From an uncultured Candidatus Melainabacteria bacterium (GTDB lineage: Bacteria > Cyanobacteriota > Vampirovibrionia > Gastranaerophilales > Gastranaerophilaceae), in contig CATKZI010000004.1 in NCBI GenBank assembly GCA_949841365.1, positions 959 through 64,958 on the forward strand: DNA of 64,000 bases, written 5' to 3'. This document shows, piece by piece, positions 12,515 through 53,560 of the stretch (its first letter is position 1; each line of letters opens with the position of its first letter). The notes beneath the pieces were generated by a model. It was not told the origin of the DNA. It searched no databases and saw only the letters and a program-made list of their open reading frames with translations. The position numbers and the translations under genes were made by a program.

Positions 12515-14857
12515 CTAATTGATGTCAATAACACTTACGCCGTCGCCGCCTTCGGCATCCTCTCCGGGTCGGAATTTGGCAACATACGGCGAAGTCGATA
12601 AAAATTCTCTTACTGCCGATTTTAATGCGCCTGTGCCGTGACCGTGAATTACCGTAACGCAGGCAAGGTTTGCAAGACTTGCTTTATCAAGATAATTTTC
12701 TAAATCATCAAGTGCATCTTCAACCTTTAGACCGCGCAGGTCAAGTGTGTTTGAGATGTTTATGCGTCGAAGTTCAAAGCTGTCGAATGATGATGGTTTG
12801 TAAACATTTTGTTTTTTCTCGTAAGACGCGTCGTATGGAGCAAGTTTGTTGCATTTGATTTTTGTTTTTATGTTGCCCATTTGAACTGTAACGTATTTGT
12901 TCTTGTCAGGCAGGCTCAAAAGAGTTACGGGCTGGTTAAGTTCTTTCAAAATAAGCTTGTCATTTTCTTTAACAGATGCCCAGTCGATTTCATCATAGTG
13001 TTGTTTTTCATCGAATTCTGAGAGTTTACCGCGGAATTTTTGTTCCATTTGAGCAAGACGGGCGTATGAACGACGTGCAATTTTTTCGGATTTTTCACGG
13101 CGTAATTCATCTAAAATATCCTTAATCTCTGCCTTAACTTCAAGAAGTTCGCGGTCAAATTTATCTTTAATATTTTTTACTGTCTTTTTCTTATCTTTTT
13201 TGATGGCTTTTAGCGAAGTTTCATATTCTTCTTTAAGATTTTCTGATGTTTCTTTTAAACTTTCTGCTTCCTCAAGGTTTTGGGTTAATTTTGCCTGTGT
13301 CTCTTGAAGCTTTTCAACAACTGCAATCGACGGGTCTTTTGATGAAAGAATAATATCTTTTGCTTTCTGAGCTAGTTGAGCATCAAGTCCTAGGTTTTGC
13401 GCGATAGAAATTGCGTTGCTTAAGCCCGGAATGCCGATTAGAAGCTTGTATGTAGGTTTTAGGGTTTCCGTGTTAAATTCAACTGATGCGTTTTTGAAAT
13501 ACGGGTTTGTGTATTCAAGGGTTTTAAGTTCGCCATAATGGGTTGTGATAGTTGATGTAACCTCTTTTTGTGCAAGCTTTTCCAAAATTACCTGTGCCAG
13601 AACCGCGCCTTCTACAGGGTCTGTGCCTGCGCAAATTTCATCTAATATAACAAAAGTTTTGTCATTGCTCTGTTGCAGGATTTCGATAATATTTGTCATG
13701 TGTGACGAGAATGTGGACAAATTTTGTTGAATGCTCTGGTCGTCGCCTATGTCTGCAAAAACTTTTTCAAACGGATAAACTTTTGCGTGTGTACAGGGAA
13801 GGAACATTCCTGATTTTGCCATTAATATAAACAAGCCGATTGTTTTTATTGTAACGGTTTTACCGCCTGTGTTTGAACCTGTAATGACAACGGATTTGTA
13901 ATTTTTTCCGATTTCAAAATTATTTGTCACAATATTTTCGACATTGAGAAGCGGGTGCTTCATGTTCTCAAATTCAATAATTTTGTGAGTTAAAATCTCA
14001 GGTTCTACTGCCTGTAATTTTACGGCATAACGGGCTTTTGCAAAATGAAAATCAATTTCTGCCAGAATTTTTTCACTTAAAGCAAGAGATTTAAGATTAT
14101 CTTTTACAAGGTTTGTAAGCCCTGTCAAAATCTTAATCATCTCGGAATGAATTTGAGATTTAATTTCGCGGATTTTATTGTTCAGGGGGACGATTTGTGC
14201 TGGCTCGATATAAAAAGTTTTGTTTGTCGCAGAAACATCGTGAACAATTCCGGGGACTTTGTTTTTATCGGAGGCAATTACCTGAAAAACAATTCTGTCA
14301 TCACGTGTTGTGTAAATGTTTTCCTGCAAATGTTTTGAAAAATCAGGCGAATTTAAAAGTGATGAAACAGTTGTGCGCAAGTTTTTCTCATTATCGCGTA
14401 ATGCGCTGTAATGTCCTTTTAATTCAGGAGTTGCATCAGGTCTTATGTTTAGGTTTTCATCAAACGTATTAAAAATTTTTTCTTCAAGCTCTCTGTCTGA
14501 AATTAAAACTTGTGCTTTATCTTTTAAAATAGCATTTTCAAGATTGTCTGACAGGAATTTTTTAACCAGACGCGATGTTCTCAACGTTTTGGCTGTGTCA
14601 ATTAATTCTTCTTCTGAATAATATGTCTCGGGCGGGTTAATTTTTGCGACAAACTCAATCGGAATATCCGAGGGTATATCAAGGATAAACTTTGCCTCGC
14701 GGGTGTATTGAAGCTCTCGGTTAATTGCCACGATATCATCGAGCGGAGTTAAATTTAAGCATAATTCTTTGCTTTGCTCAATTTTGGCAAAGTTTGAAAG
14801 TTTTTCGAGAATTTTATCAAATTCAAGTGCTTTTCTGCTTTTGAGTGCAATTTCCAT
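12515..14857 (-). CDS. mutS2: Endonuclease MutS2 (MutS domain V ATPase plus C-terminal Smr)
   Basis: 780 aa. Walker A GSNTGGKT, DEICAGTDP, a long coiled-coil linker, and a C-terminal Smr domain (LDLRG...VIHGHGTGALK). Confidence 0.95.
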   Translation of the reverse strand: MEIALKSRKALEFDKILEKLSNFAKIEQSKELCLNLTPLDDIVAINRELQYTREAKFILDIPSDIPIEFVAKINPPETYYSEEELIDTAKTLRTSRLVKKFLSDNLENAILKDKAQVLISDRELEEKIFNTFDENLNIRPDATPELKGHYSALRDNEKNLRTTVSSLLNSPDFSKHLQENIYTTRDDRIVFQVIASDKNKVPGIVHDVSATNKTFYIEPAQIVPLNNKIREIKSQIHSEMIKILTGLTNLVKDNLKSLALSEKILAEIDFHFAKARYAVKLQAVEPEILTHKIIEFENMKHPLLNVENIVTNNFEIGKNYKSVVITGSNTGGKTVTIKTIGLFILMAKSGMFLPCTHAKVYPFEKVFADIGDDQSIQQNLSTFSSHMTNIIEILQQSNDKTFVILDEICAGTDPVEGAVLAQVILEKLAQKEVTSTITTHYGELKTLEYTNPYFKNASVEFNTETLKPTYKLLIGIPGLSNAISIAQNLGLDAQLAQKAKDIILSSKDPSIAVVEKLQETQAKLTQNLEEAESLKETSENLKEEYETSLKAIKKDKKKTVKNIKDKFDRELLEVKAEIKDILDELRREKSEKIARRSYARLAQMEQKFRGKLSEFDEKQHYDEIDWASVKENDKLILKELNQPVTLLSLPDKNKYVTVQMGNIKTKIKCNKLAPYDASYEKKQNVYKPSSFDSFELRRINISNTLDLRGLKVEDALDDLENYLDKASLANLACVTVIHGHGTGALKSAVREFLSTSPYVAKFRPGEDAEGGDGVSVIDIN

Positions 14858-19626: not shown

Positions 19627-19653
19627 AAAGCACCTCGAAAGAGGTGCTTTTTT
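19627..19653. terminator. Rho-independent terminator (copy A of a 26-nt repeat)
   Basis: AGCACCTC-GAAA-GAGGTGCT hairpin followed by T6. Lies between hppA (+) and the convergent pilin-like gene (-). Confidence 0.7.
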
Positions 19654-20359
19654 ATTCGTATAAATATTTAGCTCCGCATCCTGAACCTGCCATTCCTCCC
19701 GGTCCGCAAGCACCAGCATCGCTTTCAGCTGATTTGTCACAACCTTTGAGTTCATATCCCTGAGCACCACCGGGGATTACTTTATTTCCTCTGAATAAAA
19801 CAATAAACATATCACGCCCTACAATGTTAGGACCTTTTGTGCCATTAACATCAACTAAAAAGGAGGGATGCGTCCAAATGTAACTCTGGGCATATATTCT
19901 GACACCGCTGTTTAATTGTGCATAACCTCCTCCTCCTGCATACATACACCATTTTTTGTCATCGTTTGGATTTAATGTTTTGCAGTCAGGAGAAACATTT
20001 TTTTGATTGCCAAATCCATTGGCGCATATTTTACCTTGTGTGCCGTCTACTACACAGTAATCTTCACTTAATCTTGATAATACTTGATAATATATTTCTG
20101 TTGAATATGGTTTTACAATTGTATCCAGACCGGTAAGAGGATGATTAATTGGGTTTTCAGCAAAAGCATTTTCATAAGCACTGCTTATTTGTGCAAAGGT
20201 CTTTTTCCACAATGCTTTAAAGTGTTTGTCTTGAATATTGTTTACAAGTGTTGGAATAGTTATAGCAGAAACAACACCTATGATTCCAAGTGTAATAAGC
20301 GTTTCAGATAATGTAAAACCTTTATTACTACGAAATTTTAAATCTGATAATTTACACAT
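19652..20359 (-). CDS. Type IV pilin-like protein (prepilin N-terminal cleavage/methylation domain), intact
   Basis: Start moved to MCKLSDLKFRSNKGFTLSETLITLGIIGVVSAITIPTLV, which has an AAGAGG RBS. It has the G-1/F+1/E+5 motif. The C-terminal VDVNGTKGPNIVGRDMF motif is shared with the two other paralogues. Confidence 0.85.
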   Translation of the reverse strand: MCKLSDLKFRSNKGFTLSETLITLGIIGVVSAITIPTLVNNIQDKHFKALWKKTFAQISSAYENAFAENPINHPLTGLDTIVKPYSTEIYYQVLSRLSEDYCVVDGTQGKICANGFGNQKNVSPDCKTLNPNDDKKWCMYAGGGGYAQLNSGVRIYAQSYIWTHPSFLVDVNGTKGPNIVGRDMFIVLFRGNKVIPGGAQGYELKGCDKSAESDAGACGPGGMAGSGCGAKYLYE

Positions 20360-24016: not shown

Positions 24017-24735
24017 TTATTTGCAAGAGGTTTTTCCATTCCAAGAAAGGTCTTTGCAATGTAAATAATCGAGATTCTCGTTGAAAATAACCCAAGCAGT
24101 ACAGCGGTCGCCGTAATTTTGACTTCCTCCTAAGCATCGAGTTAGAAATTCACTATCTTCGTTACCTATAGCAATAACCATGTTATTTACAAGATTAAAT
24201 TGAAATAAGTCTTTGCCGTATGTATTAGGACCATTTGCACCGTTCACATCATAAAAAATATAAAATTGAGGCCCGTCTTTTACATAATTTCCTGCTATAC
24301 CGCGAAAAGCAATAGATGCTCCATCAGCAAGAAGTACTTTATAATAGCGTGAATCTGTCCCGTAATTTGCGGAAACGCTGCTGCCATCAAGCCATTTATA
24401 ATTTTTCATATAGAAACAACCTTGACCATTAGCACCGCAATCTTTTGCAATTTTCAAATATGGCCTAAATATATTGAATACTTGTAAAGCTCCGTCATAA
24501 CTCCAAGGAAGTGAATATTCTCCCGGTTGCTCTTCATTGTTATACATATTATATGCATTACTTAATGTAGAATACATCTTTTTCATTTTATTAACGGTAA
24601 CTTTTTCTCGGTGTTTTTCAATAAGCACAGGCATGGTCATTGCTGCTACCACGCCGATAATACCAAGAGTAATCAAAACTTCAGCTAAAGTAAAACCTTC
24701 GGGGGGGGGGCACTCACAGCTTTTTTATTAAACAT
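24017..24735 (-). CDS. Type IV pilin-like protein interrupted by a frameshift at a C10 tract (candidate phase-variable gene, OFF as assembled)
   Basis: GGAGG RBS and ATG at 24735, then 8 codons, then C10 (24710-24701). After the tract comes EGFTLAEVLITLGIIGVVAAMTMPVLI in a different frame, continuing into track ORF 24017-24676. C11 or C8 would restore a single ORF. The C-terminal YDVNGANGPNTYGKDLF motif is present. Confidence 0.8.
24701..24710. repeat. G10/C10 homopolymer inside the pilin leader coding region
   Basis: Counted directly: gggggggggg at 24701-24710. It is one of only two such tracts in the window. Confidence 0.95.
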
Positions 24736-24810
24736 ATATACCTCCAATTATTATTTTTAATTATAAATGATTTTTTTACATTTTGCAAGATTTATAGTAG
24801 TATTTTTTTT

Positions 24811-37321: not shown

Positions 37322-37394
37322 AGCGGAAGACGAGACTCGAACTCGCAACAACCTGCTTGGAAGGCAGGGACTCTAGCCATTGAGTTACTTCCGC
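37322..37394 (-). tRNA. tRNA-Gly (anticodon UCC)
   Basis: The minus strand reads GCGGAAGTAACTCAATGGCTAGAGTCCCTGCCTTCCAAGCAGGTTGTTGCGAGTTCGAGTCTCGTCTTCCGCT. Acceptor stem GCGGAAG/CTTCCGC, anticodon stem CCTGC/GCAGG with loop CTTCCAA, and a T-arm GTTCGAGTC. Confidence 0.9.
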
Positions 37395-51732: not shown

Positions 51733-51853
51733 GTCTTTATTCTATAACTAAAGTATAAGAAATTCAATCGAGAATACATCAAAAGGTGGAGTTATAATAT
51801 TTTCTCTAATGTTATCCTTATATAGTCAAATAGGTAAACGAAAGGATATAAGA

Positions 51854-52360
51854 ATGGCAAATTTATCAATCCCATCAATTCGTGAAAGATTGTTTAACAC
51901 AAGCAAACACGAACAAACTACTCAAAGAAATTCCACTAACCCGTTTGCAGCAACTTCTTTTAAAGGTAATGTTTTGACTGCAGATGTGTTTGAATCTTCT
52001 ACAAAGCAAAACGAAAATCAAAACAACGGCAAACTTAAAGCAAGTGCACTTGTTGGTTCTATTTCAGGTTACGGCGAAAAATTCCAAAACATGATTAATT
52101 CTGTAATCTCTTTTGGAAACAGAGTTAAAGAAAATGTTGTTAACGGTTGGAACAAAATGAACAGTATCGAAATCTCATTTGCACCTGCAAAAGAAGTAAT
52201 GGGTAATTTCTATGGTTCAATTAAAGATACATTAAACACTCCGATGAGTGATATTTTCTTTACAGGTATCAGTGCTAAGTCAGTTTCCAAAATGGATGAC
52301 ATGGCGCAAGCGAGAGAATTAATGGCTTCTCATGTTGAAGCATGGGAATCTATGGTATAG
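51854..52360 (+). CDS. Hypothetical protein
   Basis: Start moved to MANLSIPSIRERLF, which has an AAAGGA RBS. 168 aa, no recognised domain. Confidence 0.5.
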   Translation: MANLSIPSIRERLFNTSKHEQTTQRNSTNPFAATSFKGNVLTADVFESSTKQNENQNNGKLKASALVGSISGYGEKFQNMINSVISFGNRVKENVVNGWNKMNSIEISFAPAKEVMGNFYGSIKDTLNTPMSDIFFTGISAKSVSKMDDMAQARELMASHVEAWESMV

Positions 52361-52372
52361 GGAGAATAAAAT

Positions 52373-52750
52373 ATGGTAACAGTAGATAAAAAAACAGTTA
52401 AAAACGTATCAAATATAATTGAAGGATTAGGAATGAACCCTAATTCAGAATGTATCGGTATTTTGGAAGATGTTGGTACAAATTCTAAAATCGATGCAAT
52501 TAGAGAAATGACTTCTCGCGCTCTTGTTAAAAGAAATGAAGAAGATGCATTGAGAGTTGTTATTGCTAACAAAGGAAAAGGTATCAATGATATGTCTACA
52601 GTTGTTGCAATGAGCACAATTAATGAACTTTTATCATTGACAGATAAAACTATAGCTATGAAAGTTTTGTCAAATACTGTTGAAATGCACTCTGATGAAG
52701 AAGTTAGAGATAATGCACGTTCAGTAAAAGCTTTAATGGCTCTATCTTAA
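52373..52750 (+). CDS. Hypothetical helical (HEAT-like) protein
   Basis: 125 aa with a GGAG RBS. Helical repeats end in DEEVRDNARSVKALMAL. Confidence 0.5.
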   Translation: MVTVDKKTVKNVSNIIEGLGMNPNSECIGILEDVGTNSKIDAIREMTSRALVKRNEEDALRVVIANKGKGINDMSTVVAMSTINELLSLTDKTIAMKVLSNTVEMHSDEEVRDNARSVKALMALS

Positions 52751-52772
52751 ATAAATTTGCCTTATAAATATA

Positions 52773-52802
52773 AAAAACCGCTTTAACATAAGCGGTTTTT
52801 TT
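52773..52802 (+). terminator. Rho-independent terminator
   Basis: AACCGCTT-TAACAT-AAGCGGTT hairpin followed by T7. A TGTTATAAT extended -10 for the next gene follows immediately. Confidence 0.7.
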
Positions 52803-52832
52803 GTTATAATAATAAAAAAGGAGGAAGCAGAT

Positions 52833-53560
52833 ATGAAATTTAATCAAAATATCGGGGGGGGGGCACTCATAGCTTAACTCCTGCGTTTACTTTAGCTGAG
52901 GTTTTAATTACTCTCGGAATAATCGGAGTTGTCGCGGCGCTTGTTATACAAGCCCTTGTAACTAATATAACTAATAAGGGATATGTTGAAAGATTAAAGA
53001 AGGCTCAAGCTGTATTACAAATTGCTACGGATACTATACTAAATGAGAATAGTGCTATTTTTGTACCAAATGGTAAAGAAATTTGTGATACTGTCGGTGC
53101 TGAAGCTGAAAAAAAGGCCTATGAAGAATTTATTGAATCCTATGCGTCTAAAATGAAAGTAATAAAAAGATGTGAAAGAACCAGCTGGAACTCTAATCAA
53201 TGTGTTAACGGCTGGAATTCATATAAAGGGCTTGATAATAGTATATTGCAAAATGTTGAGAATAACATGCCGTTTTATTTTACTTATCCGCTTGTATTAG
53301 CAGATGGTATGACTATTGCATTTAGATTTCAATCGAATGGCGGTGGAGGATTTTTCTGGACTCAGGATGCATCAGTACGCTTTACTGTAGATGTTAATGG
53401 AAAAAAAGGTCCTAATAAACTTGGCAGGGATGTGTTTTTGTTGTATCTGCGTGATGGAAAAATTGTCCCCAACAGTAAATATATTGGGGACTGTGAAACA
53501 AATAAAACAGGCTTGAGCTGTGCATACAGGGTTCTGACTGAAGGCGGTATGAACTATTAA
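52833..53560 (+). CDS. Type IV pilin-like protein interrupted by a frameshift at a G10 tract (candidate phase-variable gene, OFF as assembled)
   Basis: AAAGGAGG RBS and ATG at 52833, then 7 codons, then G10 (52854-52863). A frame without stops runs from 52844 through AFTLAEVLITLGIIGVVAALV (52883 onward) into track ORF 53153-53560. G11 or G8 would fuse it to the ATG. The C-terminal VDVNGKKGPNKLGRDVF motif is present. Confidence 0.8.
52854..52863. repeat. G10 homopolymer inside the pilin leader coding region
   Basis: Counted directly: 7 G at 52854-52860 plus 3 G at 52861-52863. Confidence 0.95.

Follow-up and report, generated by a model that had tools for sequence, protein, structure and literature searches.

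In Neisseria, the tract that switches the pilC gene lies in the region coding for the signal peptide and leaves the mature protein unaffected, as seems to be the case in the gene treated here, whilst elsewhere pilin genes are varied by site-specific inversion, as by Piv in Moraxella and in the R64 shufflon. Programmed inversions are surveyed in PMC9881135, and genic G(9-20) tracts are listed for Neisseria pilC in PMC5953494 (citing Jonsson et al. 1991). Campylobacter jejuni has about 29 polyG/C tracts per genome (PMC4965091); the modal length of its poly-G tracts is G9, and tracts lengthened to G11 are 10-fold more mutable than those of G8, the mutations shifting from insertions to deletions (PMC3401435, Bayliss et al. 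2012). In this work we analyse a gene, called here locus 2, in a stretch of 64,000 nucleotides (the window) of contig CATKZI010000004.1 (assembly GCA_949841365.1) from an uncultured Candidatus Melainabacteria bacterium, and conclude that it is most probably a live pilin-like gene, translated or not according to the length of a hypermutable homopolymer in its leader-coding region, with slipped-strand switching between an ON and an OFF state. A second gene of the window, locus 1, is built in the same way. Melainabacteria (Gastranaerophilales) are uncultured, non-photosynthetic relatives of the cyanobacteria living in animal guts; next to nothing is known of their dealings with hosts and phages.

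The type of switch is well known; what is new is its presence in this lineage and across a whole family of pilin genes. In full-text literature searches no paper came up on phase variation of pilins in Melainabacteria or Gastranaerophilales, and a broader search on homopolymers and prepilins gave none among its top matches.

Results

Locus 2 and its tract

An earlier reading of the window, made from the sequence only, had described at locus 2 a strong ribosome-binding site (RBS), an ATG at 52833, six codons, a run of ten Gs (G10) and a TAA, all of which can be read directly from the sequence (Table 1). The six codons between the ATG and the run are AAA TTT AAT CAA AAT ATC, and with G10 the ATG frame translates as MKFNQNIGGGALIA before meeting the TAA. 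The frame that carries the pilin body begins at 52844, behind a TAA, ends with the stop at 53558-53560 and encodes ...GGGTHSLTPA/FTLAEVLITLGIIGVVAA... (a slash marks the predicted cleavage site throughout). As that reading had it, this frame is without ATG and stays open into the open reading frame (ORF) 53153-53560; in fact, ATG, GTG and TTG are all absent from it between 52844 and 53153. As the stretch from the tract to FTLAE offers no in-frame start, the 135-amino-acid (aa) product called from 53153 is a fallback of the gene caller, lacking the pilin N-terminus. Repair of the gene in silico gives 242 aa with G11 and 241 aa with G8, against the roughly 240 that had been foreseen for these two lengths, whilst G9, G10 and G12 give 12-14 aa. 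A change of one unit in the number of Gs is thus enough to toggle locus 2 between its full-length and its short product, which is the behaviour of a homopolymer contingency locus.

The same architecture, tract length and necessary correction (+1 or -2) recur at 24701-24710, as also claimed earlier, in locus 1, the gene of which lies on the minus strand. The repaired proteins of the two loci are paralogs (30% identity, E = 3e-19). Their tracts are the sole runs of more than 5 Gs or Cs in the 64 kb of the window (36% G+C), and lie 21 and 25 nucleotides (nt) past the start codons of its only two FTLAE-type pilin genes. A chance origin of the two tracts is excluded. The features of both loci are collected in Table 1.

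Table 1. Features of the two pilin-like loci in the window
Feature	Positions	Strand	Remarks
Locus 2 gene	52833..53560	+	leader up to Ala at -1, FTLAE 52886-52900, stop 53558-53560; 242 aa at G11
Hairpin AAAAAACCGCTT..AAGCGGTTTTTT closing the upstream unit	52772..52801	.	terminator-like site prediction and sequence
Locus 2 promoter (putative)	52783..52810	+	TTAACA, 16-nt spacer, TGtTATAAT (extended -10); 11/12 matches; consensus match only
Locus 2 Shine-Dalgarno GGAGG	52820..52824	+	8 nt upstream of ATG; read from sequence
Locus 2 prepilin leader start codon ATG	52833..52835	+	also the start of P0121 (242 aa, called in L088)
Locus 2 G10 homopolymer tract (switch)	52854..52863	+	G10 out of frame; G11 or G8 in frame; G11 allele in L088
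TAA ending the 14-codon product of the G10 allele	52875..52877	+	sequence
Locus 2 block TC-G10-CACTCATAGCTT	52852..52875	+	sense in locus 2
Locus 1 gene	24017..24735	-	MFNKKAVSAPPP(E)G/FTLAEV...; 239 aa at C11, 238 aa at C8; out of frame at C10
Locus 1 tract, C10 in sense (G10 on + strand)	24701..24710	-	alleles C8, C9, C11, C12 in L089-L096
Locus 1 promoter (putative)	24760..24788	-	TTGCAA, 17-nt spacer, TATAAT; 10/12 matches
Locus 1 RBS GGAGG	24745-24741	-	sequence
Locus 1 ATG	24735-24733	-	sequence
Locus 1 block TC-G10-CACTCACAGCTT	24699..24722	+	antisense to the locus 1 gene

Tract length in different assemblies

Heterogeneity in the length of the tract, which had been set beforehand as the test of the switch, is found as far as assemblies can show it, with G10 and G11 at locus 2 and C8 to C12 at locus 1. 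Locus 2 reads G10 in the window, in ENA ERZ17811043 and in GCA_949052885.1 (L001 and L002). A Logan contig from SRR21392035 (L088), on the other hand, is identical to the window along 7,195 bp (0 mismatches) but for a single gap, where it has a G11 tract, and the 242-aa protein called from it (P0121) is identical to the predicted G11 product. It falls in the same 90% cluster as P0001, the truncated 135-aa out-of-frame call that occurs on 26 contigs. Another Logan contig (L003, from SRR25741836) ends inside the tract of locus 2, at window position 52858 and after 6 Gs, as the branching of an assembly graph over mixed tract lengths, or read errors in poly-G, would produce; we take this as a hint only.

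At locus 1 the alleles C8, C9, C10, C11 and C12 all exist across near-identical strains, with the out-of-frame C10 by far the commonest. Truncated calls of 205-207 aa stand on about 45 contigs. Five contigs, verified and coming from ENA, NCBI and Logan, carry the exact C11 product (P0271), the C8 product (P0272) occurs in other assemblies, and C12 and C9 likewise. In the case of L089, the tract of locus 1 is the sole difference from the window over 20,720 bp. As ERR3199652 (C10) and ERR3199645 (C11) belong to one and the same study, their difference at locus 1 is not an artefact of the platform.

The window is OFF at both loci, and SRR21392035 is in frame at both (G11 in L088, C11 in L092). 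ERR3199645 has locus 1 in frame; its locus 2 is presumably OFF, since none of the ENA assemblies has an in-frame product of that locus recorded. The two loci therefore appear to switch independently; for the sample with both ON, independent switching and co-selection in that host are alternatives.

A pilin locus of a second species behaves alike: its majority allele is the out-of-frame G10 (24 contigs read), whilst in-frame G11 occurs on one contig, aligned over 3.6 kb with 0 mismatches and 1 gap, and G9 on one contig. A scan of JGI metagenomes with a pattern covering both loci gave a single relevant match (L087), from another species, with G10 and in the same out-of-frame register.

Nature of the products

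The profile of prepilin-type N-terminal cleavage/methylation, TIGR02532, is matched by both repaired proteins above its cutoff of 16.3 bits (18.2 for locus 2 and 23.1 for locus 1), and Pfam N_methyl by both below its cutoff of 21.2 (17.1 and 18.9, respectively). The N-terminus FTLAEVLITLGIIGVVAA of locus 2 is common to thousands of database proteins, together with a C-terminal DVNGxKGPNxxGRDxF...C...C motif, and the few named homologs are labelled as type II secretion, GspH-family or prepilin-type proteins. An AlphaFold model of the product, built with 28 homologs (predicted local distance difference test score 85, predicted template modelling score 0.78), has a helix of 53 residues (21-73) followed by six strands forming a beta head. 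A Foldseek search of the model against the PDB gave no match with E < 1, so that the assignment of the fold rests on its topology. Taken together, profile matches, motif and model indicate that the product of locus 2 is a type IV pilin-like (prepilin-type) protein. Its mature N-terminus would be N-methyl-FTLAEVLITLGIIGVVAALVIQALVTNITNK, and the peptides of its body include GYVER and CERTSWNSNQCVNGWNSYK.

A third pilin-like paralog, at 19652-20359 on the minus strand, has an uninterrupted leader, MCKLSDLKFRSNKG/FTLSETLITLGIIGVVSA (FTLSE), scores 25.1 bits against PF07963 and has no tract, and an HTH_3 regulator gene adjoins it according to the gene table of L089. Judging from the sequence of this paralog, some members of the pilin family are without the switch.

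The family in Gastranaerophilales

Loci related to these two come almost exclusively from metagenome-assembled genomes (MAGs) of Candidatus Gastranaerophilales/Melainabacteria from animal guts. We surveyed 80 of them (L006-L085, 885 kb), a tract being a G/C run of at least 7. The conservation of the tract at this position in relatives, to be expected if the earlier reading was right, is evident: the 80 loci hold 65 such runs, of length 7 (1 run), 8 (1), 9 (9), 10 (40), 11 (9) and 12 (5), nearly all of them in pilin leaders, 20-35 nt past the RBS and ATG of a pilin-like ORF. Read in the direction of the gene, the run is G in 37 cases (leader ...GGGG-x-NLSS...) and C in 19 (leader M..(K/E)ALRIAPPP(E)..).

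Tract genes from which an ORF of 150 aa or more can be reached (e.g., L018:5967 and L053:5930/8503/11849) number 57 with the two of the window; 7 of them are in frame as assembled, whilst 14 need -1 and 36 need +1. Among the 39 loci with G10, 3 are in frame, 5 need -1 and 31 need +1. The modal length is OFF in most of the genes. The 50 out-of-frame loci keep the shifted ORF intact over 150-450 aa, where an open frame of 200 codons has a chance of about 8e-6. Such long intact bodies in out-of-frame genes imply that these genes are maintained, not decaying.

In about half of the family, both loci of the window included, the tract lies within 20 codons of FTLxE with no alternative start, and there it necessarily gates translation. 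The other half has a longer leader, with an internal Met in 9 loci and a promoter-like TGnTAnAAT in 4. In some of these relatives (e.g., L007:2205 on the minus strand and L062:6764) a promoter-like TGTTATAAT (read as Cys-Tyr-Asn), a second RBS with ATG and a short canonical leader intervene, and the tract may not gate expression in such long-leader genes.

Leader modules are shuffled relative to pilin bodies between species. The ortholog of locus 1 in a sister species (P0277 / P0152, 68% identical) has a long leader of the G class, MKTITDRTFGGGGNLSKSPFLESLSNTGVSGQVARLG/FTLAEV, and the leader type of locus 2, GGG(G)THSLTP, is joined to unrelated globular domains at L010:6017 and L087:161. When the body of locus 2 was compared with those of L087 and L010 for the ratio of nonsynonymous to synonymous substitution rates (dN/dS), the bodies proved non-orthologous, with dS saturated at 1.0-1.8; leader and N-terminal helix are common to them and the globular domains differ.

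The block around the tract

In both loci of the window the tract is the core of a block of about 24 bp, TC-G10-CACTCAYAGCTT, lying on the plus strand in spite of the opposed direction of the genes. The sequence-only reading had overlooked that the tract and its 11-nt flank keep to one DNA strand in the two loci. The two loci share the 21-mer GGGGGGGGGGCACTCAYAGCT (20/21 identical; 0 matches in 100 shuffles). In the orientation of the gene, the block is inverted between homologous flanks (ATG..TTTAAT..AAA upstream and TTTACTTTAGCTGA downstream), and its translation is GGGGTHS in locus 2 and AVSAPPP in locus 1. Across the family both orientations are present. The common context is tC[run]C(A/G), with a C on both sides of the run in 80-90%; AGCT lies within 22 nt 3' of the G-run in 35/67 (background 6.6%), and TAAGCT in 11/67 (background 0.4%). 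This flank holds on whichever strand the gene lies, its polarity following the run rather than the gene. No orientation polymorphism of the block, as an invertible switch would have, was seen at either locus in 13 assemblies of this species.

Three possible reasons for the flank and its polarity were tried, none of which is supported. Anti-Shine-Dalgarno pairing of the GCTCC/CTCCT that follows the tract with the RBS was rejected, four folded leaders having no significant structure. As for polarity with respect to replication, the window, L007 and L076 each carry their G-runs on one DNA strand regardless of the strand of the gene; 49 of the 65 runs have the Gs on the G-rich strand, but this is confounded by gene orientation, and the informative class, where the run is read as C, gives 11/19. 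Complementarity or homogenisation of G- and C-class blocks within a genome is not supported in general, the mean similarity of flanks being 6.2 within the same genome (n=15) and 5.6 +/- 2.0 between different genomes. The pair of blocks of the window is unusually similar, its 11/14 being in the top 1% of pairs of G-class with C-class blocks.

Surroundings of the loci

Two ORFs on the plus strand just upstream of locus 2, 51809-52360 (183 aa) and 52373-52750 (125 aa), are without Pfam match and keep that neighbourhood in all assemblies examined; the hairpin of Table 1 sits between them and locus 2. An Rfam scan of the whole window matched only a tRNA, at 37322-37394. The gene table of L089 also places a MutS2-type gene (MutS_V + Smr) at about 12515-14857 of the window, on the minus strand; the genes relevant to the instability of tracts are those of mismatch repair, mutS and mutL.

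Discussion

The anatomy of locus 2, the differences in tract length that separate otherwise identical genomes, the exact ON allele and the conservation of the arrangement across the family are all observed, and they support, as far as sequences can, the phase variation that had been implied. Slippage, its reversibility and rate, the activity of the promoter, the cleavage of the leader and the biological benefit would complete the picture as follows. Locus 2 would be transcribed from a near-consensus promoter of its own, whose function we infer from the match to the consensus, and ribosomes would initiate at the ATG at 52833. With G10, translation would end after 14 codons and produce no pilin, no other in-frame start being available ahead of FTLAE. 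Slipped-strand mispairing in replication would then gain or lose Gs, and G11 or G8 would fuse the leader to the pilin body. As the tract is upstream of the predicted cleavage site (A/FTLAE), these changes of length would alter only the discarded leader and not the mature subunit. Locus 1 would follow the same logic, its tract being read as C10. Most copies in the family rest one base short (G10, ON at G11), so that cells would express a small and stochastically changing subset of the paralogs, and G11 (ON) alleles would relax to G10 by deletion bias, if they behave like those of C. jejuni. A possible benefit would be the variation of surface structures under pressure from the host, its immunity or phages.

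Several observations weigh against this interpretation. ON at locus 2 is known from one contig (in 2 samples) versus 26 contigs with the truncated call, and homopolymer lengths in short-read assemblies carry some risk of error. The variation is that seen between assembled consensus sequences. The residue at -1 of the cleavage site is Ala at locus 2 (TPA/FTLAE) and Gly at locus 1 (EG/FTLAE); Ala is the majority residue at this position of the family alignment (consensus xAFTLAEV). Neither pilus assembly genes nor a prepilin peptidase are among the Pfam-labelled ORFs of the window, which make up part of its ORFs only. Finally, 7 genes ON out of 57 is far from the one-third expected under unbiased switching, and this shortage needs either deletion bias, selection for OFF or some contribution of recoding.

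Recoding could even be the main route of expression: G10 would then be the designed length, slippage of RNA polymerase on G10/C10 or a -1 frameshift on G GGG GGG / C CCC CCC would make a constitutive low amount of pilin, and the DNA variants would be noise. The strong preference for G10 with ON at G11 (31 of the 39 G10 loci need +1) would suit such a design, as would G10/C10 being the majority allele at three loci of two species, the intact state of out-of-frame bodies across many species, and the fact that homopolymer slippage would work for either orientation of the tract. However, a programmed recoding site is expected to be fixed, whereas here the length goes from 8 to 12 at a single locus in near-identical strains, and relatives have in-frame loci with G10 and with G11. 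Slippage by bacterial RNA polymerase during elongation is, besides, documented mainly for A/T runs. Neither is there any significant RNA structure near the tract, the folding z-scores of four leaders being -0.24, +0.37, +0.13 and -1.21, and the conserved flank, lying after the run in one class and before it in the other, cannot act as a common RNA stimulator. We therefore regard recoding as unlikely to be the designed route; being compatible with switching at the DNA level, it may add some leaky expression to it.

It is also conceivable that locus 2 is a decaying pseudogene, or that its frameshift is an error of homopolymer sequencing or assembly and the true gene is intact. Homopolymers are indeed error-prone, the L003 contig breaks within the tract, and most databases call nothing but the truncated 135-aa product. 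But independent assemblies from three sources agree on G10, its truncated call stands on 26 contigs, and one and the same pipeline gives different lengths at locus 1 (ERR3199645 versus ERR3199652). Decay, in its turn, sits badly with a promoter, RBS, ATG and 239-codon shifted frame all intact, with the intact bodies kept by 50 out-of-frame relatives, and with the sole two long G runs of 64 kb sitting in the sole two FTLAE pilin leaders, all of which makes an error or a pseudogene highly improbable. Still harder to believe is that the block is the site of a recombinase and that the switch consists of its inversion, or of recombination between the copies 28 kb apart, and not of slippage. What invites the thought is that the block is nearly identical at both loci (20/21) and inverted relative to the gene between homologous flanks, that both orientations exist in the family, the flank being oriented by the run rather than by the gene, and that leader modules are shuffled against pilin bodies between species. 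Inversion, however, leaves the length of the block unchanged and so would not restore the frame; the copies are direct repeats, so that recombining them would cost the chromosome 28 kb of housekeeping genes; all 13 assemblies of this species have the same orientation and differ only in the length of the run; and no recombinase lies beside either locus in the gene tables, which cover about 14-35 kb and 49.5-59 kb.

Slipped-strand switching being the preferred explanation, the flank allows a tentative addition to it, to which we would give only a small chance: the tract might be the core of a dedicated cis-module of about 24 bp (tC-G10-CAxTCxxAGCT), installed in either orientation in pilin leaders, with a stable length of 10 that is OFF and with ON one insertion away. 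Were this true, the module would amount to a default-silent expression lottery for dozens of pilin paralogs of the family, and its flank would have a function at the level of DNA, either as the site of a protein tuning slippage or transcription, or in the pairing of G- and C-class transcripts, whose blocks are complementary. In any case, the bias towards registers one base short, together with a flank that is independent of gene orientation, could teach how the registers of repeats evolve.

Classic contingency loci would thus be present in an uncultured gut lineage, with ON and OFF alleles circulating among samples. A practical consequence concerns annotation, since the public calls at 53153-53560 (135 aa) and 24017-24640 (205-207 aa) are fall-backs to an internal Met without pilin N-terminus; some callers pick a GTG or TTG inside or beside the tract (MPPPPEG..., MEFRGGGAHG...). 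As gene callers systematically truncate genes with a tract, the pilin repertoires of this lineage are under-annotated in MAG catalogues. The loci also offer a ready marker for following, in metagenomic reads, the within-host population dynamics of a commensal that cannot be cultured.

Comparison with known systems

Like the systems of pilin inversion, the loci described here have their variants set by a change of DNA near a conserved pilin 5' end, and a short element occurring in both orientations. Unlike them, they have no orientation polymorphism, no recombinase was identified beside either locus, and the variation is purely one of run length. The homopolymer phase variation of Mycobacterium tuberculosis (PMC10334774) rests on the same sort of population-genomic evidence, namely frameshifting tracts that are polymorphic across many genomes; its tracts are shorter, lie in a GC-rich genome and in diverse genes, and involve no dedicated pilin family.

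The contingency loci of C. jejuni come closest in their genome-wide logic. Both genomes are AT-rich, with G/C runs of at least 7 that are rare and concentrated in genes of surface structures, both have a sharp modal length (G9 in C. jejuni and G10 here), and in both many independent loci combine into phasotypes. The deletion bias of long tracts in C. jejuni would, moreover, explain the relaxation of G11 (ON) to G10 (OFF) postulated here. The targets differ, being in C. jejuni mostly glycosyltransferases, capsule, lipooligosaccharide and flagellar modification, with tracts in varied positions, and here one family of paralogs whose leaders have the tract at a constant position. The ratios of ON to OFF in C. 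jejuni are not reported as skewed to one register to the degree seen here (7 ON of 57), and its rates have been measured experimentally, whereas the present system is known from sequence.

The closest precedent is pilC of N. gonorrhoeae and N. meningitidis (PMC5953494), where, like here, a poly-G tract within the reading frame, in the 5' coding region of a pilus-related gene, turns the protein ON or OFF by gain or loss of a G. No conserved flank in either orientation is described for pilC, as opposed to the flank present here. PilC is a pilus-associated adhesin or modulator of retraction with a Sec signal peptide, and is encoded by one or two genes per genome of a pathogenic proteobacterium; the product here is a predicted pilin subunit with a class III (prepilin) leader, and belongs to a large family of paralogs in a commensal Melainabacterium.

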